A stretch of DNA of 39,460 nt from a virus: the IMG/VR virus record IMGVR_UViG_3300009694_000006, positions 1-39,460 of that record. One strand, written 5' to 3'. The position numbers and the translations under genes were made by a program. This document shows positions 1 to 39,460 of this stretch, piece after piece. Below the pieces are notes generated by a model, which was given only the letters and a program-made list of their open reading frames with translations, searched no databases and was not told the DNA's origin. Each line of letters begins with the position of its first letter. Position 1 is the first letter of the stretch.

Positions 1-123
1 TGAAGTCAAAGCAGTAACAACTATAGCTACAAAAACAAAAGGAGGAGCATCTGTTAATATCTTAACTCCAACCAATAAAACAGCATTACTTGGAGCTGGT
101 TTAACTTTAGACGAAATCAATCA
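1..123. repeat. Terminal direct repeat, left copy. Identical to 39338-39460. Indicates a circular or permuted genome closure.
   Basis: Base-by-base comparison: tgaagtcaaagcagtaacaac...gacgaaatcaatca occurs at both window ends. The repeat lies inside a coding frame. Confidence 0.95.
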
Positions 124-450: not shown

Positions 451-3400
451 ATGTATACACCAGTAGAACAAAGAAAAAAAATAGTTAAGCAAAAATCTTT
501 TTCTAAATCTGAAAAAAAACAAATTACTATTGAAACAGTTAAAGGTGTTTTAGGTTGGACTAAACCAGAAGATAATCCTTATTTGAAAGTTGCTAAAGAT
601 ATTGCTCAAGGAATTGCTAGAACTGTTGCGTCTGTTGGTATTTCAGCAGGTAATATTCCTAGTAAAATTAAAAGTCAAAGACCGACATTTAAAGAAGAAA
701 TTCCTACACAAGAGACAAAATTAGGTAGAGCAATCTTTGGAGAAACTCCAGTAAGAACAGTCGAAGAAAGAGTTAGACGAACTAAAGAACAAATTAAACC
801 TTATATTGGAGAAAAAATTTCTCAGAAAGTTGCTTTTCCTTTAGTAGGATTAGGCATTGCTATGGATTTAAGTGGGTTCGGAGGAGGAAAGGTTGTTAAA
901 AAAATGACAGAAATACCTGAACAATTTTGGAAAGTAATCGGAAAAGAAAAGAATGCTACTAAAATTGAAGGAATTCTTACAAGTATTGGATTAGATAAAA
1001 AGAATGCTAGATCTTTATCTGAGACTTTTGCTCCATTATCTAAAACAGAAGATCTTAAAAATGCTCTTGTATCTTATAAACCTGTATCTGAAAGAATTCC
1101 ACTTAGTGAGATTATTAAGAAAGAACCAGTTTATTATCATGGAACTAACAATGGTAAAGAAATTGTAAAACAAGGATTTAATCTTTCAAAACTAGGTGAT
1201 AACAGCGGTTATAAGGGAATAATGGGTAATGGTATATATCTTGATATGACACCTAATGCGGAAGGAGCTAAATTATATGGAAAAGATATTCTTGAGGTAA
1301 AACCAAAATCTGGATTAAAATTATTTGAATGGTCGGGAAAAGTATCTGATTTATATCATGAAAAAACTGGATATGGAACTCCTGAAAAAATTACTGAATA
1401 TTTACAATCTCAAGGATATGATGGTGTTAAACTTAATAATCAACAAATGGTTATTTTTAATCCAAAAAATATTGAAAAAGTAAAAATTTCTGGTCAAGGA
1501 ACAGGTGAATTATCTCAGATAAAAGAATCAGAAATTAAACCAGTAAAAAAAGAACCACTTCAGAATGAAACTATTAAATGGATAGATAATTGGGTTTCAG
1601 GGAGTAATAAAAAACCATCTTTGAAAGTTGAACAACAATTATCAAAGTATAAAGGAAATAAACCTGTTACATTATACAGAGCTGTTATTAAAGGAAAAGA
1701 AAAAACTAATGAAATTGAATCTTGGTCTTATTCGAAAGATGGAGCTGAATTTCATGCAGATGTTGGTTTCCCTGAAAATGCTGAATATACCATTATAGAA
1801 AAACAATTTAATCCTGAAGATATTATATTTGATAGTAGACATCTTTCTGAAGATGAACTAAGTTCTTTTTCAGAAAATGCTCTTAGATACTTAGAAACTG
1901 AAAATGAGGTTATTGTTAGAAATAATAAAATTAAAATTCCTAAAACAGGAAATGAAGTAAAAGAAAGTCCAATAGATATTAAATTTCAATCTAAGATTAA
2001 AAATAAAGAATATCTTAAGAAAAATTTCGAAGATGAAGACTTAAAAATAGAAGATTCTGGAAAAAAATATGTGTATCATGCAACTAATAGTAAAAATATT
2101 GAAGAAATTAAACAAGAAAAATTCTATAGAGCACAACCAAAAGGAGAGGGCTTAATAAAAAGAGGAGGAGGAAGTATGTATGGGAATGCTCCTCATTTCA
2201 GTGAAAATCTTGTAACTGCAAAAATGTATGGTGATAATATAATTGAATTTGGAATTAAAGATGGTTCAAATATAAAAAGATTCAAAGGAACATATGATTT
2301 GAATAAAGAAGTAGGAGAATGGGCTGAAAAAACAAAAGGAGCATTTTATAAAAATAATACTGAAGGAAATCAATTAATAGATGATTGGGCTAAGGCAAAC
2401 AAGGTTGATATATTATTTGTTGGACAAGATGGTAGTATTTTTAATCAAAATGCAATTAAAAGATTTGATGATAATAAATCTCTTTTCCCTACAGTTATTC
2501 AAGGTGAAACATTTACAATGGGTCCTTCGACAACAACTTCTCCTACATTAAAAGGGTTGAAAACTGAACTTAAAGCAACTCAAAAAGAAATTAAAAATGC
2601 ACAGATTGCTGCTGAGAAAGCTGCTAAATTAGATGCTAAAGAACAAAAAGTAAGAACAGATGCTTTATCAAAACTTAATAGATATCGAGGTTCTACTGAT
2701 ACAATTGAAGGAGAATTGAAAAATAAAAATCTATCTCAAGAGGATATTGAAAATATAGTTCTTGAAGATGGAACTAAACTACTTGATGCTGCAAAAATAA
2801 AACGTAATAATGATGGTTCTCTTTCAACTGTTATAACTAAAAAAGAACTTGAAGATATCAAAGCTAGTTATACTGATGAAGTGCCGAAACAAAAATGGGA
2901 AAAGAAATCTATACTTGTAAATGCAAAAGAAATTCCTATTAATCTTTTAAAATCAATTGAACTACCTTATTCTTATTTTGAAAGAAAAGGATTATCTTCT
3001 ATCTATGATCAAGTAATTGAATCACAAAGAGATGCTGAATTAATGAAAAGTAGATTAATTGAAAAATTCAAAGATGCTGGTTTATATAAAGAGGGAGGTT
3101 GGTTTACTGCAAATCGTTTTAACTTATCTAAGAATGAAGCTGAAGGAGTATCTGAATATTATCTTGGACATCAAGGACACGGAAAGGAAATTCCTATTAC
3201 AGATTTATCTTCTAATGGACAGAAGTTTGTTAAAGTATTTGATGAAATAATTAATGAAACAACTAAACCATTTTATGAAGTAGCTAGAAGAATGGGAAAG
3301 AATCCTGGAGTTGTTGAAAATTATGCACCAATAATGACAAGAGACGATATAAAACTTGTTGATCAAGGTGGTGGTCAAGATTGGTTATTTAGAAAACATC

Positions 3401-4920
3401 CAGCATTCTTTTCACTTAAAGAAAGAGTTAAAAGAGTACCTAAAGAAATATACGAAACAGATTATAGAAAAGTTGCAAGTCGCTGGTTAGATGGAATAAC
3501 ACAATTTATAACAATGGGTGATACTACTAACCATCTTAAGTATTTAATTAATAGTGATGAATTTAAAAGTTTAATTAAAGAACAAGATTATTCAATTGTT
3601 TCTAATTGGCTTAAAGATATCACAACTCCTCAGATATCAGGTTCATTAGCAGGACAAGCGACAAATGATTTATCTAGATTAATGAGAAAAGGAGTTGCTC
3701 TTGGGTCTCTTGGATTAAACTATGCTACAGTTCTCAAACAGGCATTAACTCAAATACCAATAACTATTATTGAAAAAGCACCTCCTAAATTTAAAAGTAA
3801 ATATGCTGAAGCTTTTGGAATTAATGTTAAAGATTTACCTTCTATTTCTAAGAGAAAAGGAGATATTGCTATATCAGATTTACAAGGTAAAATAGGAAGT
3901 ATTTTTACAGGAGCTATTACACAGTTTGATAAGAAGAATGCTCAATTAGCTATGAATGCTTTACTTGATAAAGAGTATCGTAAATTTTTAAAACAAGGAG
4001 ATGAAATAACTCCAGAAGTAAGAAAAGTAATTGAAAAGACAGCTCAAGATAAAATAGATATGTGGTTTGGAGGTTTCTTTAAAGGACAAAGACCTGAAGC
4101 TTATAGACAAGAATTAGGAAACTTTATTTTAATGTTTACTTATCCTTTGACTTCTCAAGCTAATGGATTTTTCAGACATATGTTAAAAGCTAAAGGTTTT
4201 GTTGGAAACATTAAAGCTGTTGCCGAAGTTCTTGGAGCTGTTGTAGGAATTGCTTATATGGAAAAAGTTATAGAAAATCTAAGTCCTCAATGGAGTGATG
4301 AAAAAGAAATGACAAAAGATATTCTTGTATCTGCAACAGGAAATATTCCAATGGCTGGACAGATTGCTTATGCTATAGAATCAGGACAAGATATGAACGT
4401 ATCTCCTGTTGTAGGAAATATAAATAATATAGTTAGAAATATAAGTAAAGGCGAAGGAGAAAAAGTAGCTTGGAATATTGCTGAAACTATTGGATTACCA
4501 AAACAGATTAGACGAATTAGAGAAGGTCTTGAAATAATGGAAGAAGGCGGCGTTACAGATAGTAACGGAAAAATGATGGCTCCTGTTCAAGATACTATGG
4601 AATATATTCGCGCATTCTTAAGAGGAAAATATGGACCTTTAGCTTCCCAAGATTATATTAGAAATATGGGAGCTGATGCTGAAGATAGAAGATGGTTTTA
4701 TCCTGAAGTTGAATTTTTACAAAATGCTGGAAGTTCAAAACATCCTAAAGATGGAAGTTATAAGAGAAGAGCAGAAATTTATAAAACTTGGGATAAACAA
4801 AAACAAATTGAAATGAGAAATTTTTTAAGTGAAAATCAACAAAAAAAATTAGATAAAGCTCTTCAAGGAAAGTCGACATCTAGTAAGGGCACAAAAGCAT
4901 TATCAGATATTTTTAAATAA
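451..4920 (+). CDS. Giant polyvalent virion/ejection protein (1489 aa), a T7 gp16-like position. The N-terminal third has three ADP-ribosyltransferase-like modules. The C-terminal part is a large hydrophobic/Gly-rich body.
   Basis: PARP-like motifs YYHGT...GIMGNGIYLD...AKLYG (H230). An R-S-E-like set TLYRAV (R410), SWSYS and ETENEVIV (E484, E486). A second H-Y module YVYHAT (H543)...SMYGNAPHF. Sits just before the lysis genes and after other large structural genes. Confidence 0.6.
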   Translation: MYTPVEQRKKIVKQKSFSKSEKKQITIETVKGVLGWTKPEDNPYLKVAKDIAQGIARTVASVGISAGNIPSKIKSQRPTFKEEIPTQETKLGRAIFGETPVRTVEERVRRTKEQIKPYIGEKISQKVAFPLVGLGIAMDLSGFGGGKVVKKMTEIPEQFWKVIGKEKNATKIEGILTSIGLDKKNARSLSETFAPLSKTEDLKNALVSYKPVSERIPLSEIIKKEPVYYHGTNNGKEIVKQGFNLSKLGDNSGYKGIMGNGIYLDMTPNAEGAKLYGKDILEVKPKSGLKLFEWSGKVSDLYHEKTGYGTPEKITEYLQSQGYDGVKLNNQQMVIFNPKNIEKVKISGQGTGELSQIKESEIKPVKKEPLQNETIKWIDNWVSGSNKKPSLKVEQQLSKYKGNKPVTLYRAVIKGKEKTNEIESWSYSKDGAEFHADVGFPENAEYTIIEKQFNPEDIIFDSRHLSEDELSSFSENALRYLETENEVIVRNNKIKIPKTGNEVKESPIDIKFQSKIKNKEYLKKNFEDEDLKIEDSGKKYVYHATNSKNIEEIKQEKFYRAQPKGEGLIKRGGGSMYGNAPHFSENLVTAKMYGDNIIEFGIKDGSNIKRFKGTYDLNKEVGEWAEKTKGAFYKNNTEGNQLIDDWAKANKVDILFVGQDGSIFNQNAIKRFDDNKSLFPTVIQGETFTMGPSTTTSPTLKGLKTELKATQKEIKNAQIAAEKAAKLDAKEQKVRTDALSKLNRYRGSTDTIEGELKNKNLSQEDIENIVLEDGTKLLDAAKIKRNNDGSLSTVITKKELEDIKASYTDEVPKQKWEKKSILVNAKEIPINLLKSIELPYSYFERKGLSSIYDQVIESQRDAELMKSRLIEKFKDAGLYKEGGWFTANRFNLSKNEAEGVSEYYLGHQGHGKEIPITDLSSNGQKFVKVFDEIINETTKPFYEVARRMGKNPGVVENYAPIMTRDDIKLVDQGGGQDWLFRKHPAFFSLKERVKRVPKEIYETDYRKVASRWLDGITQFITMGDTTNHLKYLINSDEFKSLIKEQDYSIVSNWLKDITTPQISGSLAGQATNDLSRLMRKGVALGSLGLNYATVLKQALTQIPITIIEKAPPKFKSKYAEAFGINVKDLPSISKRKGDIAISDLQGKIGSIFTGAITQFDKKNAQLAMNALLDKEYRKFLKQGDEITPEVRKVIEKTAQDKIDMWFGGFFKGQRPEAYRQELGNFILMFTYPLTSQANGFFRHMLKAKGFVGNIKAVAEVLGAVVGIAYMEKVIENLSPQWSDEKEMTKDILVSATGNIPMAGQIAYAIESGQDMNVSPVVGNINNIVRNISKGEGEKVAWNIAETIGLPKQIRRIREGLEIMEEGGVTDSNGKMMAPVQDTMEYIRAFLRGKYGPLASQDYIRNMGADAEDRRWFYPEVEFLQNAGSSKHPKDGSYKRRAEIYKTWDKQKQIEMRNFLSENQQKKLDKALQGKSTSSKGTKALSDIFK

Positions 4921-6176: not shown

Positions 6177-6220
6177 ATTGTATGGTTTAATAATTTAGTT
6201 GTTTTATTGTCTAATATTAA

Positions 6221-6266
6221 TATATTAATAAAGTAGGTTGGATTATTTTTATTTTTATTATATAAT
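6221..6266 (+). promoter_or_regulatory. Early promoter family member 1: -35 TTGGAT (6238-6243), 17-nt spacer, -10 TATAAT (6261-6266).
   Basis: Shares the upstream block TATATTAATAAAGTAGG and identical spacing with the promoters at 13082 and 16484. Confidence 0.65.
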
Positions 6267-12733: not shown

Positions 12734-13053
12734 AAGAAACAGAAAGTCAAATTCAATCAGCAATTTGTGATTACCTTACATACAAAGGATATTTCTTTTG
12801 GAGACAAAACAATGTCGCAACTATTCAAATTGATAGTTATGGAACAAGAATGAGGAGAATGCCTAAGTATGCTAGAAAAGGAACTCCTGATATTTTTATT
12901 CTTTTGCCTGGTAAAGTTATTTTAATGGAAGTTAAAAGTTCTATCGGACAATTATCAGATGAACAAAAAGAATTGCAAAAAAAATGCGAAGAGTTTCAAA
13001 TTCAGTATTGTGTTGTAAGAAGTATTGACGATGTTCAAAAGTTAGGGTTGTAA
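12727..13053 (+). CDS. VRR-NUC family PD-(D/E)xK nuclease.
   Basis: GTPDIFILLPGKVILMEVKS followed by GQLSDEQ. Confidence 0.75.
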   Translation: MLKETESQIQSAICDYLTYKGYFFWRQNNVATIQIDSYGTRMRRMPKYARKGTPDIFILLPGKVILMEVKSSIGQLSDEQKELQKKCEEFQIQYCVVRSIDDVQKLGL

Positions 13054-13081
13054 AAATTAGAAAGTTATACTGTAATACTCA

Positions 13082-13127
13082 TATATTAAGAAAATAGGTT
13101 GTCCTATATTTTAATATATCATATAAT
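13082..13127 (+). promoter_or_regulatory. Early promoter family member 2: -35 TTGTCC (13099-13104), 17-nt spacer, -10 TATAAT (13122-13127).
   Basis: Upstream block TATATTAAGAAAATAGG and spacing match the promoters at 6221 and 16484. Confidence 0.65.
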
Positions 13128-13134
13128 CGATATT

Positions 13135-13719
13135 ATCGAGGTAAAGAATTTCATTGAAATCTTGATATCAAAAGTAGTAGTAAAGGAGCTTCAACACCCT
13201 TCTACCTAAGTGAAAATAGAGCTTTTGATATTAGGTTTCAGTGAATTTCTTCACTGAGTTAATTTACAACTGGAATATAAGTGCTCAAGAAAGAAAAGCA
13301 ATTAGAAGATGAGATTATAAAACAATAATATACTCATATCAATTTCTTTACTAATCTTCTTTCTTCTTAACATTTCTAGTAACTACATTCTGGTTTAAGA
13401 TAAGTTTTAAATTTAATAGGGTGTGTTAGCTCTCACAAAATTAAGTAGAGTTCAACCCAAATTTAAACAAAAAATCTTTTTCAATATCACTATTGGTATA
13501 AATTAATATCGATTTTTAATTGTCGTGCACGGTTCTGATATTCCAGAAATGGAGTAGAATTAAGAATCATAGTAGCTTTTATGTTACTATCTTTGCTTGA
13601 TAATAACAGATTATAAGCAACTAACACATAGAAGAATTCCGATAATAGTCAGTTATAAAGTTGTAGTGAACCTTTATAATATCCATTCTATTATCGGATT
13701 CTCTCTTGTGTAATAAATT
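13135..13719 (+). ncRNA. Long ORF-free structured leader or non-coding RNA (about 585 nt) upstream of the deazaguanine module.
   Basis: No ORF of 60 aa or more in any frame, and none longer than about 11 codons seen on the + strand. Contains a 28-bp duplex (13146-13174 with 13222-13249), a competing hairpin (13239-13256), and hairpins at 13419-13458, 13570-13591, 13594-13620 and 13634-13701. Confidence 0.45.
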
Positions 13720-14073
13720 ATGAAAGATAAAAAAAGGGTAAAATATAGTTTTAATCAGATGATTAATGATTCTATAGAATTAGCAAATCGTCTTAAATTA
13801 ATAAGTTTTAATTTTAAGAACATTTACTGTTCAACTCTTAATTCTCAAGTATTAGGAATTATTCTTTCAAAGGAATTAGATTTACCTATAATCTATTCTA
13901 AGGCACGAATGTCTGATGAGACACTTATTGTATCTCATCTTATAGGTAGAAAAAATCAGTATAAAAAGCAGAATACTATTGTAGCTTTATTTATTGATAA
14001 AGACTCAAAAGTAAAAGTTGCATATTATTCTCATATCTTAAGAGAAAATCAATGGATAGATTTTACTCGTTAA
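13720..14073 (+). CDS. Degenerate xanthine-guanine phosphoribosyltransferase (Gpt)-like protein (117 aa).
   Basis: KYSFNQMINDSIELANRL, NIYCSTLNSQVLGIILSKELDL and NQWIDF resemble Gpt segments recalled from memory. The PRPP loop position reads TLIVSHLIGRKNQY, with no DD or TGGT. Confidence 0.4.
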   Translation: MKDKKRVKYSFNQMINDSIELANRLKLISFNFKNIYCSTLNSQVLGIILSKELDLPIIYSKARMSDETLIVSHLIGRKNQYKKQNTIVALFIDKDSKVKVAYYSHILRENQWIDFTR

Positions 14074-14083
14074 GATTTATTAA

Positions 14084-14117
14084 TTGACAAGATAATATAT
14101 CTAATTTTAGATATATT
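14084..14117 (+). promoter_or_regulatory. Consensus -35 TTGACA followed by a perfect 11+11 palindrome. Candidate operator or internal promoter before yhhQ.
   Basis: TTGACA at 14084-14089. AATATATCTAA (14094-14104), two central T, then TTAGATATATT (14107-14117). Confidence 0.4.
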
Positions 14118-14132
14118 ATTTAAAAAACTACT

Positions 14133-14834
14133 ATGTTTAAAAACTACAAAGTTACACCAGAGAATATTTCTTCGTTGTATGTTATTATCGCGGGATTGTT
14201 TGTATGTTTCTTAATGATAGCAAATATTGCAGCAAATAGAATGGTATCGTTGCCTTTTGGTATAATTGTTACAGGTGATATCTTTCTATTTCCATTGACC
14301 TATATTTTCGGAGATGTGTTAACAGAAGTTTATGGTTTTAAAAGATCAAGATTAGTAATCTGGTTAGGAATGCTAGCTAATCTTATCATGATCGGTTATT
14401 TTACATTATTAATTAAAACTCCTTTTCCATCAGATTTCGTAGCTAATGATGCGTATAGAACAGTTCTTGGTGTTACACCTATTATTGTTCTTGCTTCTAT
14501 TCTTGCTTTCTTTGCCGGAGAATTCTCAAATTCAGCATCGTTATCAATTATCAAAAAATGGACAAAAGGAAAATTCTTATGGATTAGAACTATTGGTTCT
14601 ACTATTATAGGTCAAATTTTTGACACTTTAACTTTTATGTTTATTGCGTTTAATTTCTTACCTAAAGAATTATTCTGGCAAATGGTTCTTGCTCAATACT
14701 TGTTTAAAGTAATTTATGAGATTTTAGCAACACCTTTGACTTACATGATTGTTAAAAGAATTAAAAAAGTTGAACAGTTAGATACATTCGATTATGGAGT
14801 TAAGTATAATCCATTTTCGTTAAAAATAAAATAA
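14133..14834 (+). CDS. yhhQ: YhhQ/VUT-family queuosine-precursor (preQ0/preQ1) transporter.
   Basis: Multi-TM protein with family motifs FPLTYIFGDVLTEVYG, STIIGQIFDTLTFMFIAF and QYLFKVIYEILATPLTY. Confidence 0.8.
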   Translation: MFKNYKVTPENISSLYVIIAGLFVCFLMIANIAANRMVSLPFGIIVTGDIFLFPLTYIFGDVLTEVYGFKRSRLVIWLGMLANLIMIGYFTLLIKTPFPSDFVANDAYRTVLGVTPIIVLASILAFFAGEFSNSASLSIIKKWTKGKFLWIRTIGSTIIGQIFDTLTFMFIAFNFLPKELFWQMVLAQYLFKVIYEILATPLTYMIVKRIKKVEQLDTFDYGVKYNPFSLKIK

Positions 14835-14838
14835 ATAT

Positions 14839-15705
14839 ATGCGAATTTTTTTTGCAGTTAGTAATTCATCAACATATCTTAATCTCTTAAAAGAAGAAAA
14901 AGTTGATAACGTTTTAATCTCATTTGCTTTTTTCAAAAGTGCATATAAAACAAGAGAAATCTTTGGAGATTATCAACCTAAAAATCTTATTCTTGACTCA
15001 GGAGCATTTTCTGTTTGGAGTAAAGGAGATGAGATAGATATAGATCAATATGCAGTTTTTTGTCAGGATATAATTAAATTATTTTCTGAAACAAACTGCT
15101 ATTGTGTTAACTTAGATGTTATTCCTGGAAAGTTTGGAAAACGACCAACTTCTCAAGAAATAATAGATAGTGCAGAACAAGGATGGAAGAATATGGAATA
15201 TCTTGAATCAAAAGGATTAAAAGTTATTCCGGTATTTCACCAGCATGAAGATTTTTCAGTTCTAGATAAATTAACAAAACACACAGATTACATTGGAGTA
15301 TCACCAGCAAATGATTGCTCAATGGAAGAAAAGTTAAGTTGGCAAGATCAAGTATATTCAATTTTAGTTAAACAACCTGAATTGATTAAAACTCACGGAT
15401 TTGCTGTAACTTCTACAAAACAACTTTACCGATATCCATTATTTTCAGCAGATAGTTCTTCCTGGACTTCTCCTAGTCGTTTTGGAACAATTCCTATTGT
15501 TACAGATGATTTAGAAATGAAAGTAATTAAATATAAAGATAAAACATCTGTAATGAAATACTGGGAGTATATCAAAGATTGGAGTATCGAAAAATTATCT
15601 TCCGAAGATTGGAAAGATAGAATTACATTATCAATCAAGTCGTATTTACTTCTTAATAAGATAGCTAATAAGTTATGGGATAAAAGAGGTATTAAGTGGA
15701 AATAA
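14839..15705 (+). CDS. dpdA: DpdA-like DNA-guanine transglycosylase (TGT superfamily).
   Basis: LILDSGAFSVW motif (TGT/DpdA DSGxF), size 288 aa, adjacent to yhhQ and a ParB-like gene. Confidence 0.6.
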   Translation: MRIFFAVSNSSTYLNLLKEEKVDNVLISFAFFKSAYKTREIFGDYQPKNLILDSGAFSVWSKGDEIDIDQYAVFCQDIIKLFSETNCYCVNLDVIPGKFGKRPTSQEIIDSAEQGWKNMEYLESKGLKVIPVFHQHEDFSVLDKLTKHTDYIGVSPANDCSMEEKLSWQDQVYSILVKQPELIKTHGFAVTSTKQLYRYPLFSADSSSWTSPSRFGTIPIVTDDLEMKVIKYKDKTSVMKYWEYIKDWSIEKLSSEDWKDRITLSIKSYLLLNKIANKLWDKRGIKWK

Positions 15706-15710
15706 AAAAA

Positions 15711-16439
15711 ATGAATAAAGTTATAAGTGAAAATAAAAAATTAGTGACAACAAAGAGAATTGTTCGAATCGATGATATCATTCCAAATCCTTTTAATCCA
15801 AATAAACAATCTGATTATATTTTTCAAAAAATGAAAGATACAATCGAAACAAAAGGATTGTTTGGTTCAATTATTGTTCATGAGTTAGCAGGTATTTATC
15901 AAATACTTGATGGTGAACATAGATGGAAAGCTTGTAGAGAACTTGGATGGAAAGAACTTCCTGTAGAAGTATCTCCTCAATTAGAAGAAAATGATGTTAA
16001 GTTTTGGACTATTTATTTTAACAACACTCACGGAAAAGATGATATTGAAAAACGAGCTAAGTTATTTGAAGAAATAGACGAAGGTCAAGCTCAGTTGCTT
16101 CCTTTCACAGAAGAAGAAATCAAAAACGAAAAAGAACTTTTCAAGTTTGATTTTTCAAAGTATGATGAACAAAAAGAAATATCTGCATTAAAGAAAACAA
16201 ACATGATATCATTTTCTGTTTCAGAAGATATAAAAGAATTGTGGAATAGATGTCTTGAAGTTTGTAAAGAAGATAAAATGGATATTTCAATTATGGTCTA
16301 TCGAATGTGTGATGAGTTCTTAAGAATGAATGATTTTCGTTATAATAAATTTCTTGAAGAAAAAGAACAAAAACGAGTTCAAGATGTCATAGATAAGGAT
16401 ATTAGAAAAGCTAAAGAAAAAGAATTAAATGAAAATTAG
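15711..16439 (+). CDS. ParB N-terminal-domain protein (DpdB-like position).
   Basis: IIPNPFNPNKQ and ILDGEHRWKACRELGW motifs. The ATG at 15711 is preferred over the in-frame GTG at 15696 listed in the track. Confidence 0.7.
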   Translation: MNKVISENKKLVTTKRIVRIDDIIPNPFNPNKQSDYIFQKMKDTIETKGLFGSIIVHELAGIYQILDGEHRWKACRELGWKELPVEVSPQLEENDVKFWTIYFNNTHGKDDIEKRAKLFEEIDEGQAQLLPFTEEEIKNEKELFKFDFSKYDEQKEISALKKTNMISFSVSEDIKELWNRCLEVCKEDKMDISIMVYRMCDEFLRMNDFRYNKFLEEKEQKRVQDVIDKDIRKAKEKELNEN

Positions 16440-16483
16440 TAGGTGGGGATAACTATTTTTTAGTCTTATTTTACAAGATGGTA

Positions 16484-16529
16484 TATATTAATAAAATAGG
16501 TTGTCCTAAAATAAAAAATAGCTTATAAT
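16484..16529 (+). promoter_or_regulatory. Early promoter family member 3: -35 TTGTCC (16501-16506), 17-nt spacer, -10 TATAAT (16524-16529).
   Basis: Upstream block TATATTAATAAAATAGG is nearly identical to that of the 13082 promoter. Confidence 0.65.
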
Positions 16530-20189: not shown

Positions 20190-20227
20190 AGCTCAAAGAT
20201 CTATTTGTTTTATCAATTATAGCATAT

Positions 20228-20256
20228 TTGATTTTTTATCAAAAATATCTTATAAT
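20228..20256 (+). promoter_or_regulatory. Late promoter family member 1: -35 TTGATT, 17-nt spacer, -10 TATAAT.
   Basis: Shares the 20-nt block AAAAATATCTTATAATAT(G/A)TATAT with 25510-25533. Confidence 0.55.
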
Positions 20257-20282
20257 ATGTATATACTATTTTAAATAAAAAC

Positions 20283-24161: not shown

Positions 24162-25498
24162 AGCAAATAGTTAATGAAAAGTATATTGATATGTTTCCTA
24201 TACCAAAAGGAATCCGCTATGTTATCTTAATTGGTGGACGAGGTGCTGGACGTTCTACAGTATCATCACAATATAGCTTAGCCAACTTAGTGGCTCCTAA
24301 TTATTTTAGAGGGGCTTTTATGCGTTCTGTATATGCTGATATAAGAGAATCATGTTATAAAGAAATAACAGATAGAATGGACGAGCAGGAAGTTACAAAT
24401 AAAATGAAAATCAATGATAACGAAATGGAAATAACTTATGGACTCAATAGTCTAAAAGCTCATGCATTTCGTAAATCATCTTCAGGACACTCAGCTAAAC
24501 TTAAATCGTTGGCATCATACAATCAAGTATGGATAGAAGAAGCTGAAGAAACAGGTGAACAAGAGTTTATGACACTAGACGATACCTTAAGAACGACAAA
24601 AGGAAACATTAATATCATTTTATCTCTTAACCCTCCATCAAAAAATCATTGGATAATATCAAGATGGTTTGACTTATCTCAAGCATACGAAGAAGATGGA
24701 ATTACTCCAATCAAAGGATTTTATACTCTTAAACTTAAAGACGATGTTAAAGATGTCTTATTTATTAATACAAACTACAAAGATAACATCGTTAACTTAG
24801 ATGCTCATACTATACAACGATACGAAAAGTATAAAGAAACTAAACCAGATTACTATTATCAAATGATAAGAGGCTTGGTTCCTGAAACAGTTCGTGGTAA
24901 AATATATAAAAATTGGAAGATAATAGATAGTATTCCACATGAAGCAAGACTTGTAAGGCGTGGGATGGACTTTGGTTGGTTTCCAGACCCTATGTGTCTC
25001 GTTGATATTTACTATTACAATGGCGGTTATATCATTGATGAATTACTTTACGGGACAATGATTAAGAATAGAACTATTGCAGATACGATTGCTATTCAAA
25101 ATGAACCAGATATCTTATGTGTTGCTGACGAAGCTGAACCAAAATCAATTGATGAAATATCTGATCTTGGAATAAATATTGAAGGATGTCCGAAGGGTAA
25201 AGGATCAGTATCATATGGAATCAAAACAGTTGCAGGATTAAAGATATCAGTTACTAGACGCTCAAAGAATGTTATTATATCATATGAAAATTATGCTTGG
25301 AAAGAAGATAAAGATGGAAATCCAACAGGTGAACCAAGTCATGAATACTCACACGCCATGGATGCTATAAGGTATCCTTTAGTGTCTTTGGTCGATAGTA
25401 GAATGGATCCAGAAAGAGAAGCTAAACAACAGATTGAGGTAGTAGTCAGGCGGGATAAGTATAAAAAAGATCAATCAAGAAAGTTTGGAACATCATAA
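24158..25498 (+). CDS. terL: Terminase large subunit.
   Basis: Walker A GGRGAGRST, Walker B VWIEEAEE, nuclease Asp motifs GMDFGW and HAMDAIRY. The ATG at 24158 is preferred over the TTG at 24140 in the track. Confidence 0.9.
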   Translation: MKQIVNEKYIDMFPIPKGIRYVILIGGRGAGRSTVSSQYSLANLVAPNYFRGAFMRSVYADIRESCYKEITDRMDEQEVTNKMKINDNEMEITYGLNSLKAHAFRKSSSGHSAKLKSLASYNQVWIEEAEETGEQEFMTLDDTLRTTKGNINIILSLNPPSKNHWIISRWFDLSQAYEEDGITPIKGFYTLKLKDDVKDVLFINTNYKDNIVNLDAHTIQRYEKYKETKPDYYYQMIRGLVPETVRGKIYKNWKIIDSIPHEARLVRRGMDFGWFPDPMCLVDIYYYNGGYIIDELLYGTMIKNRTIADTIAIQNEPDILCVADEAEPKSIDEISDLGINIEGCPKGKGSVSYGIKTVAGLKISVTRRSKNVIISYENYAWKEDKDGNPTGEPSHEYSHAMDAIRYPLVSLVDSRMDPEREAKQQIEVVVRRDKYKKDQSRKFGTS

Positions 25499-25499
25499 T

Positions 25500-25528
25500 T
25501 TGGAGTTTTAAAAAAAATATCTTATAAT
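25500..25528 (+). promoter_or_regulatory. Late promoter family member 2: -35 TTGGAG, 17-nt spacer, -10 TATAAT.
   Basis: Shares the AAAAATATCTTATAATAT block with 20238-20262. The -10 ends 6 nt before the ATG at 25535. Confidence 0.55.
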
Positions 25529-25534
25529 ATATAT

Positions 25535-25852
25535 ATGGAAACAAAAAAATACAAAATAATTGGTAAAATAGAGATAGTAACAGAAGAAGGAAAAGGAACT
25601 GGAAAGTTTCTTGCAAAGAATTCAATTCATGAGATACCTGAAGAATTAGGTAGTAAATGGGTTGAAAATGGTGATGCAATATTAGTAGAAGATAAGTTAG
25701 ATAAAGACGAAGAGAAAACAGATGCTACCGAAATTAAGGTGTATAACAAAGATAATCAGGTAGTAAGAGTTTATAGTAAGGCAGTTCATGGTAAAAATTT
25801 TATAAAGTTAGCAAAGGAATTTACAGTTAAGAAAGGTTATTCATTGAAATAA
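25535..25852 (+). CDS. Hypothetical protein (105 aa).
   Basis: ORF. Possibly translated from a leaderless mRNA. Confidence 0.45.
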   Translation: METKKYKIIGKIEIVTEEGKGTGKFLAKNSIHEIPEELGSKWVENGDAILVEDKLDKDEEKTDATEIKVYNKDNQVVRVYSKAVHGKNFIKLAKEFTVKKGYSLK

Positions 25853-28924: not shown

Positions 28925-31900
28925 ATGGACAACGATAAGATACAAATTAAAGACTTAGATACCGAAACTCCAGTAGCCGAAGATTACTTAGTTTTTCAGA
29001 AAGCTACTGGAGATAACGAAGTATATAAATCTCCTAAATCTGAGATTGAGGGACATGATGCTTACGTATACATAGCCTATGCAGATGCTGATGATGGAAC
29101 TGGATTTACTCTTGTCTTTAATGCAACTAAGGATTATATTGCTATTCTATCAAGTGAGATTGAAATTCCTTCTCCTGTAGTAGGAGATTTTGCTGGTTTA
29201 TGGAAAAATTATAAAGGAGAACATGGAGATGCCGCAACAAACGATGTAGGAACAGTAACTAAACTAGCACCAGATGCTACTCCAACAATAGTTAATGTTG
29301 GAACTATTTATCACGCTATTTATGATTTTGGTATTCCTAAAGGTTCAACAATTTATTCAACAGTAGGAATTCCAGATGTATCAGTTGGAATGAATGGAGA
29401 TTGGGCGTTTGATACTTCAGTTAATTCTTATGTTTACTATAAATCAGCTGGAGCTTGGGCACTAGTTAATAGTAACAAAGGTGCTCAAGGTGATACAGGT
29501 GCTAAGATTGTCAGTGTTGTATTCTCTGGCAATGATATGGTATTTACCTTAGACGATTCTACAACTGTTATATTAACTGATGCTAAGACAGATTTAAAAG
29601 GAGATACAGGTGCTAAGATAATTAGTGCTTCTTTTGTTGGAAATGACTTAGTTTTTGTCTTAGATGACTCATCAACAGTTACATTAGTTGGTGCTTTAAC
29701 TTCTTTGAAGGGAGATAAAGGAGATACTGGTAATCCTGGAATGGTTTGGAAAGATGTTTATGTAGGTGCAACAACTTATGATATCAATGATGTAGTCTAT
29801 TATCTTGGAAGTTCTTATATTTGTATTCATGAATCAACAGGAAACTTACCTACAGATATTAATTTTTGGAATCTAGTTGCTATAAAAGGTGATCCAGGAG
29901 CCGGATCTGGAGATGTATTAGGACCCGCAAGTTCTGTTGATGCTAATATTGTAATATTTGATGGAATTACAGGTAAAATTATTAAAGATAGTTCAACAAA
30001 AGTTTCTGATTTAGCAACTATCACTCAATTAAATCTTAAACAAACAGCATTTCCAGGATTAGACGAAACAACTCCAGTAACAATTTCAATAGATTATACA
30101 ACTAGAATATTAACTGTTACACCAATAGGAGCATCTTTTAATGTCTTTACTGATGGAGGAGGTGTAACAACTAAATATACAAAAATTGGAGCAGTTAATT
30201 TTCCTGCTTTTACAGATACTTCAGGAATATGGTATTTTAGTTTTGATCAAAGTGGAAATCCAATAGCTTCTCAGACTGAGCCATCTAGTTATCGTATCTA
30301 TGCTCCTATTTATCGTATTCTTTGGAACAGCACATTAAGTGGTTCTGCTAAAGCTATTACAGAAGCATATGAAATTCACCCAAATAATATCTCTGGTTCA
30401 GATCATGATTGGAAACATAAATATGGTGCAGTATGGAAAAGTGGTGGAATTTTAGCAAATTCTGCTCTTGCAGTAGGAACACCTAACGCAAGTGGATTAA
30501 ATACTTGTGTAGGATTAACTACATTGGTTAATCTTGATGATAACTTAGAATATACAATAACTAATTCAACTGGAGGATTAACTTGGCAACAAGATTTAGG
30601 AGAGGTAACTCCTGCTAATATAACAGTATCGAATAGTGCTTTGATGCAAATTCGTTATCAAAATGCTAGTGGTGTCCAATTTATACTTCCAGCTACAAGA
30701 TTTCCATTTGATTTTACAAGTAATGTTCCTAATTATATAACATCAACAGGGGTAAGAACTCCAGTTCCAGATAAAAGATTTTTCGTTTATTTTATAACTT
30801 CTATTCAAGACCCTAGAAATGGAACAGCAATTAAATTATGGTCAGCTCCTGCTAGTTATGGAACAATTGTAAATGCTCGTGCTGTAAATTGGTCTGATAT
30901 GCAAGCTACATATCCTGTTGTTGCAGATAAAGAAGTTAGACCTCTTTATAGAATGATTTTTGAATATAGAGCTTCTTATAGTACAGCTGTAAAAGGTTCT
31001 GTGTTAAGAGAAGTTCAAGATATAAGAGTTGCTCAAGTAACAGCAACAACTGCTTCAACTGGTTCAATGCCAGCTTCAAGTGTAACTTTTGTTCCTATTG
31101 GAGGTATTTCATCAACAAATGTTCAAAGTGCTTTAGAAGAGTTAGATACAGAAAAAGTTCCTTACACTGGTGCAACAAGTGCAGTAAATTTAGGTGCTCA
31201 CAATCTTACTGTTGATACAAATACATTGTTTGTAGATTCAACGAATCATAGAGTTGGGATAGGAACTACTTCACCATCAGCATTATTACATGGAGTTGCG
31301 GGTGTTTCAGATTTTAGATTTTCTCAAGGTGCAGCTGATCTTACTCCAACCATGTCTGTTATAAATACTAGTTCTGGAGGTAAAGCTGCTGCTTTGCTTG
31401 CTGGTACATCTGGTTCTGCATTTGATTTTGATTCTTCTGGTGGATTTTATATACAGAGTGATACAAAGGCAAACTTTTTGGCAAATAATCTTGGAACTGG
31501 ATCTATTTTAATGACTGTATTGGGAAGTGGAAATGTTGGAATTGGAAATGCTTTTCCAGCAACAAATCTTGATATCACAGGAACAGGTGGCTCTCCATCT
31601 GGAACACCTTCTTTCCCAGTTAGAATTGTATCTGGAACAAACACTAATCCTGGTATAGTTTTTGAACGAAGTGATGCAAGTAAATTTGTAAATCTTTGGA
31701 CGGGAAGCGGAGCAGCGGTGTTAGGATTTACTGATACTGCTTCAAGACTAGCTATTGGAACTTATTCTTACGCAAATAGATATTCTACTGGTTTCCCAAC
31801 AACTGAAATTTTATCTATTCTTCCTAGTGGTAATGTAGGAATAGGTTTAACAGCTCCAACTGCACGACTTCATTTAACAGCTGGAACTGCTGTTGCATCA

Positions 31901-37300: not shown

Positions 37301-37523
37301 TTGTGTAGATTATATTACATTACCAGCAGGAACCAGTATTGCAATTTCAGCTAAAACCAAATACGATACTTCATATGTATCACAAGCAGTTGTAACAGAT
37401 ACAGATAAAATGACAGTTAAAACTAAAGCTAATCTTCCTAAAGTTGTTAATTTACAAGTTAAAATAGATCTCATTTCTACAGGAAATTATAGTCCTGAGA
37501 TAGAGAATATTGGAATATTATAA
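34332..37523 (+). CDS. Large tail protein (1063 aa) with an internal beta-propeller-like repeat array.
   Basis: Six to seven repeats of about 50 aa with the motif (I/L)D.TH..LAY...G.IK.F. Confidence 0.55.
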   Translation: MNTPLFPNGITGLSDTKFSGSRGNAYRLVGVDFRSEPGVIKAHQKLKKISGSTVTELCKDSIDVSDGSKLWFSSESGKIWRQVGDAFTLIHTVNPVTDYKEPNSIVSGVFDDPDNETGITMSIAENDAVYGTFDSIDSAIDVTQGIENSLINLDDTYYILAYAGAGGDGYLQSFTLNSTTGAYTPVENFEHDTDNGRDNSLCRIDNTHFILAYNGGASQNGIIKTFSGTTVFTQIGNLTHDSTTTGPGYNSLIQLDATHYALAYSGGVARHGYIKIFTVDGSYGVTQTSQLIHDSSGATYGHKLIKIDSTHLMLAYTDNTTAQKIKTFSIDGSYNVTEIYSLSHLTTGNIDQGLTQIDATHYAWIGLTSARNLIKVFTIDGSYNITETFSLDVGSSSYSYNLIRTDDTHLLLVLGSSLAGTIKSFEINSSFELRELSSYDYSSLNNFEVSVIRAGRRILVVFAVNGLNYLSTITMTETYANGIVLNPSGTDKIKLIASTSISQKTMSSNYLKKTIKIPSGYSNLEVVVIAGRAVGETYPPLGATVAGNAMTQIVNRTSAYGFKCSSAYYSYVNPTVGDSEISVDFGGTLSYTYAIILVFKNVHQTTPYSTTIFDYGWKDYLKLPGDTNNQLRIGAFLSKVNPHYQGELQDTLAINEIAEETNRYTLSVSCRDYNIGTAKILSAEEFSYTQQEVVGTETIEYKPEEQISKIYYTNESVLFAVPIDKITDWANNVETIGVFHNGDDTYHSMVKQNLELFIGDKIVLAKVNTNGTFIQETSLNIASPERIQVLSTFDTDILIGTKDTNRARVLRWDTFSDSWLADDDVMETGINAFIKDDNYTYVSAGDYGRIYFYNGEKLNIQKRIPGTWDSTHKATIKENAVGYYMGNPVFGLSNVLNNPALEGVYGFGNYDEKYVKAMSLDYPLPTNEFTGVDIGCLMVNGADMYVAYKTVTDVGIAKIDSANKYATAYIESMMLTSLQDRNEDSMVEGVCVDYITLPAGTSIAISAKTKYDTSYVSQAVVTDTDKMTVKTKANLPKVVNLQVKIDLISTGNYSPEIENIGIL

Positions 37524-38198: not shown

Positions 38199-39460
38199 AT
38201 GACACAAACTTACAATAGAAATACAACAACCGCCGAATTTGGAAATAGAAATCAAGCTGTTGCGGATTTACAAAAATATCTAAATACAAAAGGAGCAAAT
38301 CTTAAAGTCGATAGTATGTATGGACCTTTGACTCAAGAAGCTGTTAAAAAATATGGAACTCCTCCTGCTACAACAACTAATGTTTCCAAACTTGAAAGCC
38401 CTGTTCCTGCTACAAATTTAAGACCTACAACAAATGTTAATTTGCCTACTGTTGAAGCTCCTGATGTTTATAAAAATTACACAACTTCTCTTGCGTCAAA
38501 TGTTGATACTTTAAGAAAGAACTTAGAAACTACTTATAAAACTCAATCTGAAGATCTTGCATCAAAGAGAGAAAAGTTAATGAAAGAGCAGAAACAAATT
38601 ACGAAAGAAATGAATCCTGAAGAACGAGCAACTTATGAACAAGAAAATAGAATTAAACAACAAGAATTGAATGCCGCAGAAGTCGCTTCAGGAACATTGC
38701 AATCAGATTTTATGAAACGACGCAAGTTATCAAGCGAATTAGAAAATCTTCTAAATCAAAGTAATTCTTTAATTGCTGAAGAAAAAGGAATGCCTTTAGC
38801 TCAAAGAGTAGTTACAGCTCGAACGGCTAATACATTAAGTGATATTGCTTCTAGAACCGGTGTTATTGAAGCAACCTTTTCAGCACTTGATGGAAATATA
38901 ACTCAATCTTATAACTTAATTGATAAAGCAAAAGAGACTGTATCTGCAGATTGGCAAGATAAGTTAACTTATTATGATACGTTGCTTGATTTGAATAAAC
39001 AAGGATTACTTGATATTGATACTGAAAGTAAGGATATAGCTCAAAAACAAGTAGGATTACTTGAATCAGATCTTAAGAAAGTAACTGAAACATCTGATTA
39101 TATTAAAGAATTAATGATTGATCCTGAATCTGCTCAATTCTTAGCTGATTCGGGTGTAAAACTTACAGATAGTATTGAACAAATAAATACTAAACTTGCA
39201 ACTCAATCTAAAGCTCAACAAATAATTGACACTAAAAACGAAATGATAAAAGATGGATATACTTATATTCCATTTCCTAGTTCAACAGCTGGTTTAGTTT
39301 CTATTACAGCTGGAGATAAAACTTTATGGTTTAAACCTGAAGTCAAAGCAGTAACAACTATAGCTACAAAAACAAAAGGAGGAGCATCTGTTAATATCTT
39401 AACTCCAACCAATAAAACAGCATTACTTGGAGCTGGTTTAACTTTAGACGAAATCAATCA
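38199..39460 (+). CDS. N-terminal part of the wrap-around virion protein: peptidoglycan-binding domain, Pro/Thr linker and long coiled coil. Continues at 124-448.
   Basis: Not in the supplied track because there is no stop before the window end. I translated it without stops from ATG 38199. Contains FGNRNQAVADLQKYLNTKGANLKVDSMYGPLTQEAVKKYG, matching the PG_binding_1 pattern. Confidence 0.75.
   Translation, partial: MTQTYNRNTTTAEFGNRNQAVADLQKYLNTKGANLKVDSMYGPLTQEAVKKYGTPPATTTNVSKLESPVPATNLRPTTNVNLPTVEAPDVYKNYTTSLASNVDTLRKNLETTYKTQSEDLASKREKLMKEQKQITKEMNPEERATYEQENRIKQQELNAAEVASGTLQSDFMKRRKLSSELENLLNQSNSLIAEEKGMPLAQRVVTARTANTLSDIASRTGVIEATFSALDGNITQSYNLIDKAKETVSADWQDKLTYYDTLLDLNKQGLLDIDTESKDIAQKQVGLLESDLKKVTETSDYIKELMIDPESAQFLADSGVKLTDSIEQINTKLATQSKAQQIIDTKNEMIKDGYTYIPFPSSTAGLVSITAGDKTLWFKPEVKAVTTIATKTKGGASVNILTPTNKTALLGAGLTLDEIN
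39338..39460. repeat. Terminal direct repeat, right copy of 1-123.
   Basis: Identical 123 nt. Confidence 0.95.

Follow-up and report, generated by a model that had tools for sequence, protein, structure and literature searches.

The subject here is a virus-derived stretch of 39,460 nucleotides, the entire IMG/VR record IMGVR_UViG_3300009694_000006 (hereafter the window), and in particular a module of four consecutive, tightly packed open reading frames (ORFs) that occupies positions 13720 to 16439 of its + strand. All four ORFs are present as given in a preliminary description of this DNA:

13720..14073, + strand: pseudo-phosphoribosyltransferase (pseudo-PRTase), 117 aa, assigned from family-profile, hhalign and Foldseek evidence and from synteny with the intact phosphoribosyltransferase (PRTase) of the related locus L011
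14133..14834, + strand: YhhQ/COG1738-type queuosine-precursor transporter, 233 aa, assigned from Vut_1 and TIGR00697
14839..15705, + strand: DpdA1-type DNA-guanine transglycosylase, 288 aa, assigned from phrog_887 and from similarity to the DpdA1 proteins of CAjan and phiSM
15696..16439, + strand: ParB-N domain protein, 247 aa, GTG start, assigned from ParB_N, Noc and Spo0J

For the last of these, gene callers disagree on the start, and an alternative ATG at 15711, five codons past the GTG, would yield a protein of 242 aa. Judging from their sequences, the four genes probably constitute one operon for a precursor-salvage version of DpdA1-type 7-deazaguanine DNA modification that includes a maintained, catalytically dead PRTase. 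A 7-deazaguanine module devoid of synthesis genes and reliant on salvage had been proposed in the preliminary description as well; the present results support this view, and the salvage idea itself is already found in the literature, where DpdA-only phages were predicted to salvage host or external precursors and the presence of YhhQ in phages and dpd clusters was noted (PMC5699537, PMC6884629).

The 288-aa protein is firmly assigned, by similarity, as a DpdA1-type DNA-guanine transglycosylase, which narrows down the DpdA-like enzyme initially suggested. It matches phrog_887 ('queuine tRNA-ribosyltransferase') with an E-value of 3.5e-48, and BLASTP aligns it with the experimentally validated DpdA1 of CAjan (31 % identity over 175 aa, E 3e-21), DpdA1 of phiSM (E 6e-36) and gp90 of Mufasa8 (E 2e-47); no similarity to DpdA3 was detected (BLASTP E ~1 against gp206 of immuto). 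More than 650 homologs were found, many on contigs of 40-47 kb, and tblastn retrieves 197 phage records. An AlphaFold2 (AF2) model generated from 48 homologs forms a (beta/alpha)8 TIM barrel with a predicted local distance difference test score (pLDDT) of 92. Its structural placement was decided by the predicted viral structure library BFVD and not by the PDB: within BFVD, Foldseek retrieves phage DpdAs, among them the Mufasa8 'TGT' (TM 0.83-0.86, E 2e-22) as well as the nt-1 protein (1.4e-8), a Vibrio phage enzyme that is the DpdA2 prototype. Invariant among the 48 homologs are D53 and F57 (LDSGAFS), D93 (NLDVIP), H134-Q135-H136 (FHQHED), HGFAVT at 186-191 and D205 (DSSSW), and the candidate active-site motifs align with those of CAjan DpdA1. 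The active site of bacterial DpdA is composed of Asp95/Phe99/Asp130/His181/Asp256 (PMC10164549), to which D53/F57/D93/His/D205 would correspond by motif and spacing. D53 would accordingly be the acid/base Asp, F57 the gating Phe four positions on, D93 and the His the substrate-binding pair and D205 the nucleophile.

Directly upstream of the DpdA gene, the 233-aa protein is firmly assigned by family profiles as a putative YhhQ-type preQ0/preQ1 transporter, in line with the importer postulated before. It scores 165.5 bits against Vut_1 (1.4e-48; cut-off 27.2) and 115.2 bits against TIGR00697 'queuosine precursor transporter' (cut-off 50.95). Among cellular proteins, the nearest homologs share 50-59 % identity with it and stem mostly from metagenome-assembled genomes (MAGs) of Syntrophomonadaceae and related anaerobic Bacillota; the best cellular match (L096) lies in an ordinary bacterial locus, and the window gene is of cellular origin. 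Pairing of YhhQ with QueF is the classic preQ0-salvage arrangement, and among cellular homologs with 42-59 % identity, QueF is found within ~4 kb in 29 of 80 loci, mostly directly adjoining. The nearest cellular homologs (L096-L175) are concentrated in MAGs of Syntrophomonas, Syntrophomonadaceae, Syntrophaceticus and Pelotomaculum, a pattern hinting that the phage comes from an anaerobic digester and that its donor or host might be sought in this group. Assignment of the host to this group is not supported, because the GC contents differ (44-47 % vs 29 %).

The absence of precursor synthesis is meaningful only for a complete genome, and completeness had indeed been claimed in the preliminary description. 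The window carries an exact direct repeat of 123 nt at both ends:

1..123 and 39338..39460, no strand assigned: terminal direct repeat, identical copies; genome of ~39,337 bp

Moreover, the 117-aa protein is encoded on 10 contigs of the 20-50 kb class, two of which measure 39,565 and 39,942 bp. Because of the exact terminal repeat and the similar-sized contigs with the same 117-aa protein, the phage genome is considered complete at ~39.3 kb. The 123-nt repeat represents either true direct terminal repeats or an overlap from assembly of a circular molecule. The claim that FolE, QueD, QueE, QueC, QueF and Gat-QueC are missing was likewise borne out, as none of the five synthesis enzymes was found by a Pfam scan of the 49 window ORFs, by custom hidden Markov models run on all six-frame window ORFs of at least 45 aa, or by tblastn with the five enzymes of a relative (best E 0.29); the QueC model would also catch the QueC portion of any Gat-QueC fusion. 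The 666-nt ORF-free stretch was considered as a site of QueE or QueD relics, but the same tblastn search revealed no relics there, nor of any Que gene elsewhere in the window. The window is AT-rich (~26-37 % GC) and has nearly all of its genes on one strand; megablast of the region returned no close relative among GenBank phages.

The origin of this arrangement can be traced with the help of the closest differently built relative (L009/L011/L016), a 39.4-kb IMG/VR genome whose DpdA, ParB and PRTase are 67 %, 60 % and 39 % identical to their window counterparts. Its genes follow the same order as those of the window between YqaJ and VRR-NUC, and between VRR-NUC and DpdA it carries QueE, a 65-aa ORF, QueD, an intact PRTase of 133 aa (L011 6001-6402), FolE, QueC and QueF, followed by DpdA and ParB. 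The same gene order occurs in other relatives, and QueF directly precedes DpdA in L016-L020. In the window, the five synthesis genes are gone without relics, and the transporter stands where FolE-QueC-QueF stood. Because syntenic relatives carry QueE-QueD-PRTase-FolE-QueC-QueF-DpdA-ParB, the window lineage must have given up synthesis and acquired YhhQ, while its PRTase was retained in a dead form. L002 shows the resulting four-gene order and the shorter contigs L012 and L013 show part of it, all three stemming from diverged members of the lineage. A second lineage (L023 6266-8498, L026 and L032; IMG/VR sample 3300045988) has a YhhQ-DpdA-ParB cassette without Que or PRTase-like genes. Compared to the window, its DpdA is ~34 % and its YhhQ 27.5 % identical, and because of the low identity of the two transporters, the salvage cassettes with their YhhQ genes seem to have been gained independently, at least twice. 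Among 80 viral loci with relatives of the 288-aa DpdA, at least one Que gene is present in 72, and no locus combines YhhQ with Que genes: all three YhhQ loci in this set are devoid of any Que gene, as is the window itself.

The 117-aa protein is the least conventional member of the module. It has no direct match in Pfam, NCBIfam, PHROGs, PADLOC or PDB sequences, and PF00156 is not matched even at E up to 1; its fold was reached solely through a family profile and intermediate sequences. The family comprises nine metagenomic proteins that are 64-100 % identical, with the ORF intact in all nine; a scan of metagenome contigs for further pseudo-PRTase genes gave 600 pattern matches with 0 confirmed, and a scan of IMG/VR found solely the intact ortholog. 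When the family profile was compared with 177,635 PDB sequences, the top match was H. pylori XGHPRT (7KL6, E 0.009), in a colinear alignment with qWIDF opposite eWIDF. Foldseek retrieves xanthine-guanine phosphoribosyltransferases (XGPRTs) as top matches of the AF2 model (E ~1e-3 to 1e-2, TM ~0.4-0.45). An exhaustive HMMER search uncovered 52 further distant relatives, mostly of 120-150 aa, the majority of which keep the PRTase motifs IYGIPRGGL, TLIVDDIxDTGxT and WIVFPWE and match Pfam Pribosyltran. Alignment of the degenerate family with 43 intact small PRTases by hhalign gave 99.5 % and E 1e-22 over 113 columns, and the profile of the intact proteins in turn matches solved purine PRTases with E-values from 5e-22 (1VDM) to 5e-13 (E. 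coli XGPRT). Located between QueD and FolE, the intact L011 PRTase is 39 % identical to the 117-aa protein (E 5e-23). Hence, because family profile, Foldseek and hhalign via the intact PRTases agree, the assignment of 13720-14073 to a Gpt/XGPRT-type PRTase fold, as put forward in the preliminary description, holds.

The same description had noted the loss of the phosphoribosyl pyrophosphate (PRPP) loop, which proved to be correct and to extend further. Residues 72-80 read SHLIGRKNQ in place of DDIxDTGxT (VSHLIGRKNQ opposite VDDIsDTGxT), and the Gpt motif FIVIDDLVDTGGTA, cited in the preliminary description, occurs verbatim in Yersinia XGPRT opposite TLIVSHLIGRKNQY of the 117-aa protein. In addition, the pyrophosphate (PPi) loop is replaced by TLNS instead of PRGG at residues 39-42 (CSTLNSQ opposite GIPRGGL), and the C-terminus has WIDFTR in place of WIVFPWE, the protein ending directly past WIDF so that PWE is gone. 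W112 has been kept and aligns with the Trp of XGPRT WIEQPW, which we take to be the purine-stacking Trp134 of E. coli XGPRT; it is conserved in eight of the nine family members and replaced by Tyr in the ninth. PRPP-dependent phosphoribosyl transfer by the 117-aa protein is thus predicted to be absent.

Starting from the intact small PRTases, the 80 best IMG/VR loci were surveyed for genes within 8 kb. Que or DpdA genes are located near the PRTase in 68 of these viral loci (FolE in 61, QueE in 61, QueD in 55, QueC in 42), and in 42 of the 61 loci with FolE the PRTase is beside (gap of at most 150 nt) or fused to it. The fusion ORFs number nine, with 298-349 aa (L204, L211, L218, L221, L222, L235, L244, L249 and L250), and P0042 is another; P0040 is a MazG-PRTase fusion. 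GenBank entries for small PRTases come from the Campylobacter phages CP220, CPt10, CP21 and F379, from Cellulophaga phage phiST and from within the cluster of Flavobacterium phage immuto, one Campylobacter-phage copy being annotated as 'purine phosphoribosyltransferase / queuosine biosynthesis protein'. Complete replacement of G has been reported for three phages, CP220, phiST and immuto (PMC10516641), and a small PRTase is present in each of them. That article contains no term starting with 'PRT' or 'ribosyltransferase' and mentions neither YhhQ nor ParB, and a full-text literature search for a link of PRTases to DpdA or deazaguanine found no discussion, with Crippen et al. 2019 as a potential exception. 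The mini Gpt-like PRTase turns out to be a frequent, so far undiscussed member of phage deazaguanine clusters. This modifies the earlier notion of a PRTase outside the described toolkits: it is indeed undiscussed in the literature found, yet it is not an isolated case but belongs to a family that is widespread in viral clusters. Intact or not, the small phage PRTases are devoid of a 20-27-residue segment between the second strand and the PRPP-loop strand when compared to 1VDM, 4Z1O, 7KL6 and 5XTK, and they form a 'mini-PRTase' class of putative catalytic competence.

Further peculiarities were observed in these clusters. One relative without detectable PRTase (L010) has a 207-aa ORF without family match between QueC and QueF (3898-4521). 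Some cluster FolE genes are overlong (P0081 context in ENA ERZ1426851; L020 3666-4718; L031 5188-6594), for example with 315 aa and a weak HNH match, which suggests a homing-endonuclease or intein-like insertion.

The ParB-type protein is recognized by Pfam ParB_N (3.3e-11), and its best PDB matches are Noc (7nfu, 1.5e-9) and Spo0J (6sdk, 4.6e-5). The match is limited to residues 19-99 and includes a GxxRxxA box at G73-A79, with (D)GEHRWKA opposite the CTP-binding box GERRWRA. Models of full chromosomal ParB/Noc proteins with central helix-turn-helix and C-terminal dimerization domain are not reached (TIGR00180, 33.9 vs 58.45; TIGR04285, 46.2 vs 315). In the DpdA survey, a ParB-N gene lies within 3 kb of DpdA in 24 of the 80 viral loci and directly adjoins it in 21; it accompanies 23 of the 27 short DpdAs (ORF below 300 aa) vs merely one of the 53 longer ones. 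ParB is also encoded beside DpdA in L002, L009/L011, Mufasa8 (gp90/gp91) and phiSM (CEPG_00053/00052), so that the pairing spans phages of Actinobacteria and Bacteroidota as well as metagenomic phages, with DpdAs down to ~25-30 % identity. Translational coupling is suggested by the overlapping or abutting DpdA and ParB genes. In bacteria, DpdA depends on DpdB, a ParB-fold ATPase of the DndB/SspE branch with a DGQQR motif (PMC10164549), and phiSM DpdA1 on its own is inactive when expressed (PMC10516641). ParB-N may, by analogy, be the missing cofactor of the short DpdA1 enzymes, of which it is a near-obligate neighbor. The preliminary description had likened the protein to DpdB. This stands insofar as ParB-N is a genuine partner gene of short DpdAs; it does not hold with respect to descent, because the GxxRxxA box and the Noc/Spo0J matches differ from DGQQR and PADLOC gave no match, just as its models gave none with any of the four module proteins. 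Relative to DpdB, the 247-aa protein is thus no ortholog but at best an analogue. Among the structural neighbors of the DpdA model, the 424-aa BFVD entry A0A6J5RUN9 ('ParB/Sulfiredoxin'; ~310 aligned columns, TM 0.42, rank 36) may be a DpdA-ParB fusion.

From these data, a working model for the operon can be outlined. YhhQ would boost the intracellular level of preQ0/preQ1 on top of any supply from the host, and DpdA would then swap guanine in the phage DNA for the imported base after replication. The inserted base is most likely preQ1, because QueF is located directly upstream of DpdA in the closest relatives, and preQ0 would also be possible. ParB-N could act as a DNA-loading or nucleoside triphosphate-dependent helper of DpdA, in the manner of DpdB in the bacterial system, and the modified base would shield the phage DNA from restriction. 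The dead PRTase would most likely serve as a non-catalytic subunit, either structural or binding a purine or deazapurine base, in conjunction with DpdA or YhhQ. As for its intact ancestor, TGT-type enzymes release free guanine and can put guanine back. Most likely, the ancestral PRTase would have converted guanine into GMP, thereby clearing the guanine released by DpdA and feeding GTP to FolE. Such a reaction would pull the exchange forward and would explain the adjacency to, and fusion with, FolE. The conserved Asp of DDIxD fits an N7-bearing purine substrate by analogy to the mechanism of 6-oxopurine PRTases.

Several observations weigh against this interpretation. For this phage, both the DNA modification and the identity of the base are predicted from the genes. 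The 288-aa protein has no match in Pfam (including TGT, PF01702), NCBIfam or PADLOC, a sequence-profile search of the PDB returned no TGT or DpdA, and the top 50 PDB structures retrieved by Foldseek with its model are generic TIM barrels with no TGT or DpdA among them. The AF2 model of the 117-aa protein is of low confidence (pLDDT 58, below 50 at the C-terminus). Since all small phage PRTases lack the segment mentioned above, it is conceivable that not even the 'intact' members are enzymes of the ordinary kind, and these could alternatively phosphoribosylate deazapurines, by analogy to the tubercidin and toyocamycin pathways. The second salvage lineage (L023/L026/L032) manages without any PRTase-like gene; because of this lineage, the pseudo-PRTase is regarded as dispensable for salvage as such, and its role as a core salvage part was rejected. 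Finally, P0014 (L258 6001-6372) is partly degenerate (PRGG to VDIES, DD to AG) inside a complete QueF-QueE-QueD-PRT-FolE-QueC cluster. This weakens the idea that degeneration merely followed the loss of FolE; because of P0014, loss of the catalytic motifs cannot be tied to FolE loss alone and must have arisen more than once, which hints at a non-catalytic role somewhere in the PRTase family. Another partly degenerate mini-PRTase (P0054; L257 404-778) is encoded directly upstream of a family A DNA polymerase.

How the pseudo-PRTase would contribute to the operon can be specified only tentatively. Conceivably, and in keeping with the base-binding or hand-off factor suggested in the preliminary description, it is a base-binding subunit that hands preQ0/preQ1 to DpdA or catches the released guanine, with its intact kin acting as a guanine sink or recycler. 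In this case, the purine pocket would be kept (W112), and exchange of the N7-contacting Asp for Gly76 could provide room for a 7-substituent. In this precise form, the proposal is a possibility rather than an expectation.

Alternatively, the 117-aa gene may be a decaying PRTase remnant without function, leaving YhhQ-DpdA-ParB as the working module. The destroyed catalytic loops, the second salvage lineage and the poor AF2 model would fit this scenario, as does the ratio of nonsynonymous to synonymous substitution rates (dN/dS), which is 0.12-0.37 in 10 pairs formed by five family members and exceeds that of YhhQ (0.07-0.21). Yet, none of the 10 pairs comes anywhere near a ratio of 1, the values resemble those of the neighboring VRR-NUC (0.24-0.43), and none of the nine variants, which are 64-79 % identical, has a disrupted ORF. 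All five copies available at the DNA level are open, and a neutral simulation, in which decay occurs by substitutions only, keeps the ORF open in 1.5 % of cases at 18 % divergence (P = 0.015). Moreover, conservation extends to the degenerate motifs: S72, H73 and G76, which stand in place of the lost PRPP-loop residues, are shared within the family, with H73 and G76 invariant. Because of the low dN/dS, the 117-aa protein is a maintained pseudoenzyme under somewhat relaxed constraint, and a functionless remnant is unlikely. As a side aspect, the synonymous rate of the pseudo-PRTase gene (0.42 for the window vs L002 1392-1742) is less than half of that of its three neighbors (~1.0-1.2), possibly through recent recombination or an RNA-level constraint overlapping the coding sequence.

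Another scenario, in which the phage would use the preQ0/preQ1 of the host cytoplasm and YhhQ would be an auxiliary factor with little role in modification, is unlikely as well. It draws on the finding that deletion of yhhQ in CAjan had no effect on modification (PMC7544227), on the missing correlation of phage YhhQ with phage groups seen by Hutinet 2019 and on the score of the 233-aa protein against the E. coli-type YhhQ equivalog NF008406, which stays below the cut-off (44.9 vs 252 bits). However, CAjan possesses the full synthesis pathway, so that the comparison is not equivalent, and the transporter exceeds the TIGR00697 cut-off by a factor of two. Among the DpdA relatives, YhhQ is encoded only where all Que genes are missing (the three loci mentioned above and the window lineage); it was gained twice independently, each time directly upstream of DpdA, and its cellular homologs pair with QueF.

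That ParB-N has no role in base exchange and merely neighbors DpdA as a generic DNA-binding, partition or nuclease protein of phages seems decidedly unlikely. Phages often encode such proteins, which are found alongside many unrelated DNA-modifying enzymes in a role that is not established (PMC12783734); the 247-aa protein also matches the N-terminal domains of methyltransferases, and it is not a DpdB ortholog. These points are countered by the tight, lineage-spanning tie to short DpdA1, by the overlapping or abutting genes and by the precedent of DpdB in combination with the inactivity of phiSM DpdA1 alone. Least convincing is the idea that the PRTase scaffold now supports a different enzymatic reaction, for example on preQ0/preQ1 or a nucleotide via His73 and other new residues: the purifying selection, the conserved S72, H73 and G76 and the shared operon with base-handling proteins would be compatible with this possibility, which was raised in the preliminary description, but all PRPP-, Mg- and PPi-binding elements of type I PRTases are gone, no motif is shared with known enzymes in Pfam, NCBIfam, PHROGs or PADLOC, the family is so small and young (nine sequences, at least 64 % identical) that conservation says little, and the protein is the syntenic descendant of an intact PRTase, which makes a new enzyme highly improbable.

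Returning to the salvage operon, its parts can be compared with several known systems. The window system is a variant of the known phage DpdA1 modification systems. It shares a homologous transglycosylase with the same active-site motifs with the clusters of CAjan, 9g and phiSM, a ParB-like gene after DpdA with phiSM, and a YhhQ gene in the cluster with CAjan. In contrast to these clusters, it lacks FolE, QueD, QueE, QueC, QueF and Gat-QueC and has a long structured leader and the pseudo-PRTase as extra parts; BLAST detects no relationship between its YhhQ and CAjan gp41. Like the 'DpdA-only' Mycobacterium phage Orion and Salmonella phage 7-11, which have DpdA without synthesis genes and are predicted to depend on salvage, the window phage would rely on salvaged precursors. 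Unlike them, it has a dedicated transporter directly upstream of DpdA, and its derivation from a full preQ1 cluster can be traced gene by gene. The bacterial Dpd system of Salmonella Montevideo (PMC10164549) similarly combines a TGT-like enzyme with a partner of the ParB superfamily, and the catalytic Asp/Phe/Asp/His/Asp set is apparently common to both. The window partner differs in having the classical ParB/Noc GxxRxxA box instead of the DGQQR motif of DndB/SspE, the window DpdA is much shorter than the bacterial enzyme and without the large Ins8 insertion, and the window system has no DpdC-K restriction part.

The pseudo-PRTase shares its fold and the colinear WI(x)F segment with Gpt/XGPRT enzymes (E. 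coli 1A95/1NUL, Yersinia 5XTK, H. pylori 7KL6) and the archaeal 1VDM and 4Z1O. Compared to XGPRT, it has lost the PPi loop, the DD..DTG.T PRPP loop and PWE, with 117 vs ~152 aa, and relative to the solved PRTases it is also shortened by the ~20-27 residues between the second strand and the PRPP-loop strand. The small PRTases of CP220, CPt10, F379, phiST and immuto ('phosphoribosyl transferase') belong to the same family and are encoded in or near 7-deazaguanine clusters. These proteins keep all catalytic motifs, and most are beside or fused to FolE, whereas the window copy is dead and its genome has no FolE. A similar association of a PRTase with FolE/QueD/QueE-type genes is known for the deazapurine PRTases of toyocamycin and tubercidin biosynthesis, and PF00156 has been noted in tubercidin clusters (bioRxiv 10.64898/2026.04.15.718813). 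By contrast, these systems make deazapurine nucleotides for secondary metabolites in clusters without DpdA.

7-Deazaguanine modification of phage DNA matters for anti-restriction biology and for modified-DNA tools. The locus bears on the questions of why phiSM DpdA1, DpdA3 and DpdA4 are inactive when expressed alone, what permits complete replacement of G and how DpdA-only phages obtain their base. It illustrates that a de novo pathway can be cleanly replaced by a transporter, at least twice, and a dead PRTase under selection would be a natural separation-of-function allele for any non-catalytic role. The main yield consists of two family-level leads, the ParB-N helper and the mini-PRTase beside FolE. 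If the former assists DpdA and the dead form of the latter binds bases, both would be unrecognized parts of the phage 7-deazaguanine toolkit, and if the intact PRTases operate a sink from guanine via GMP and GTP to FolE, this would allow the high or complete G replacement found in CP220, phiST and immuto.

The module is flanked by additional elements that may govern its expression:

13081..13127, + strand: promoter-like 47-nt repeat with TTGTCC-N17-TATAAT at 13099-13127; repeat copies, conserved core
13128..13719, + strand: ORF-free leader of ~590 nt with structured RNA elements; conservation, covariation
16483..16529, + strand: next copy of the promoter-like repeat, marking the downstream module boundary

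The 47-nt repeat occurs in three copies in the genome, at 6220-6266, 13081-13127 and 16483-16529, the latter two of which bracket the module, and its TTGTCC-N17-TATAAT core is identical across five related phages; promoter-like matches as a class are not above chance in the AT-rich window. The copy at 13081-13127 is the probable start of the module transcription unit. The adjoining leader has no + strand ORF of 40 aa or more, shares 70 % identity with L002 along its full length and is kept in five phages of the lineage. It is predicted to form a long imperfect hairpin at ~13150-13245, which is missing from the L013 leader, a terminator-like hairpin at 13237-13258, another at ~13581-13609 and a long one at ~13624-13711 that stops 8 nt short of the first start codon. 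Covariation is seen in the hairpins at ~13581-13609 and ~13624-13711, and RNAalifold revealed compensatory changes in 14 of 42 predicted pairs. No Rfam family matched at gathering score in the window, and the preQ1 riboswitch families RF00522, RF01054 and RF02680 gave no match at E up to 10 within 12900-14200; since none was detected in the searches, a preQ1 or other riboswitch of known type as well as a tRNA were rejected. A covariance model of the leader, run against 1.15 Mb of related loci, matched only the five training phages, and the element is restricted to the window lineage rather than widespread. It could function as an attenuator, a riboswitch-like leader or a small RNA, and the covarying RNA might sense the same base that the module handles.

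Elsewhere in the window, a second family of promoter-like intergenic repeats is found at 20226-20264 and 25498-25536, with the 3' end TATCTTATAATAT; the two families probably represent temporal promoter classes. Three very large ORFs at 451-4920, 28925-33343 and 34332-37523 encode proteins of 1489, 1472 and 1063 aa. Pfam gave no match for the first, and none of the ten Pfam families from the batch scan of the later genes seems to fit the other two; all three presumably belong to the virion or ejection apparatus of a podovirus-like phage.

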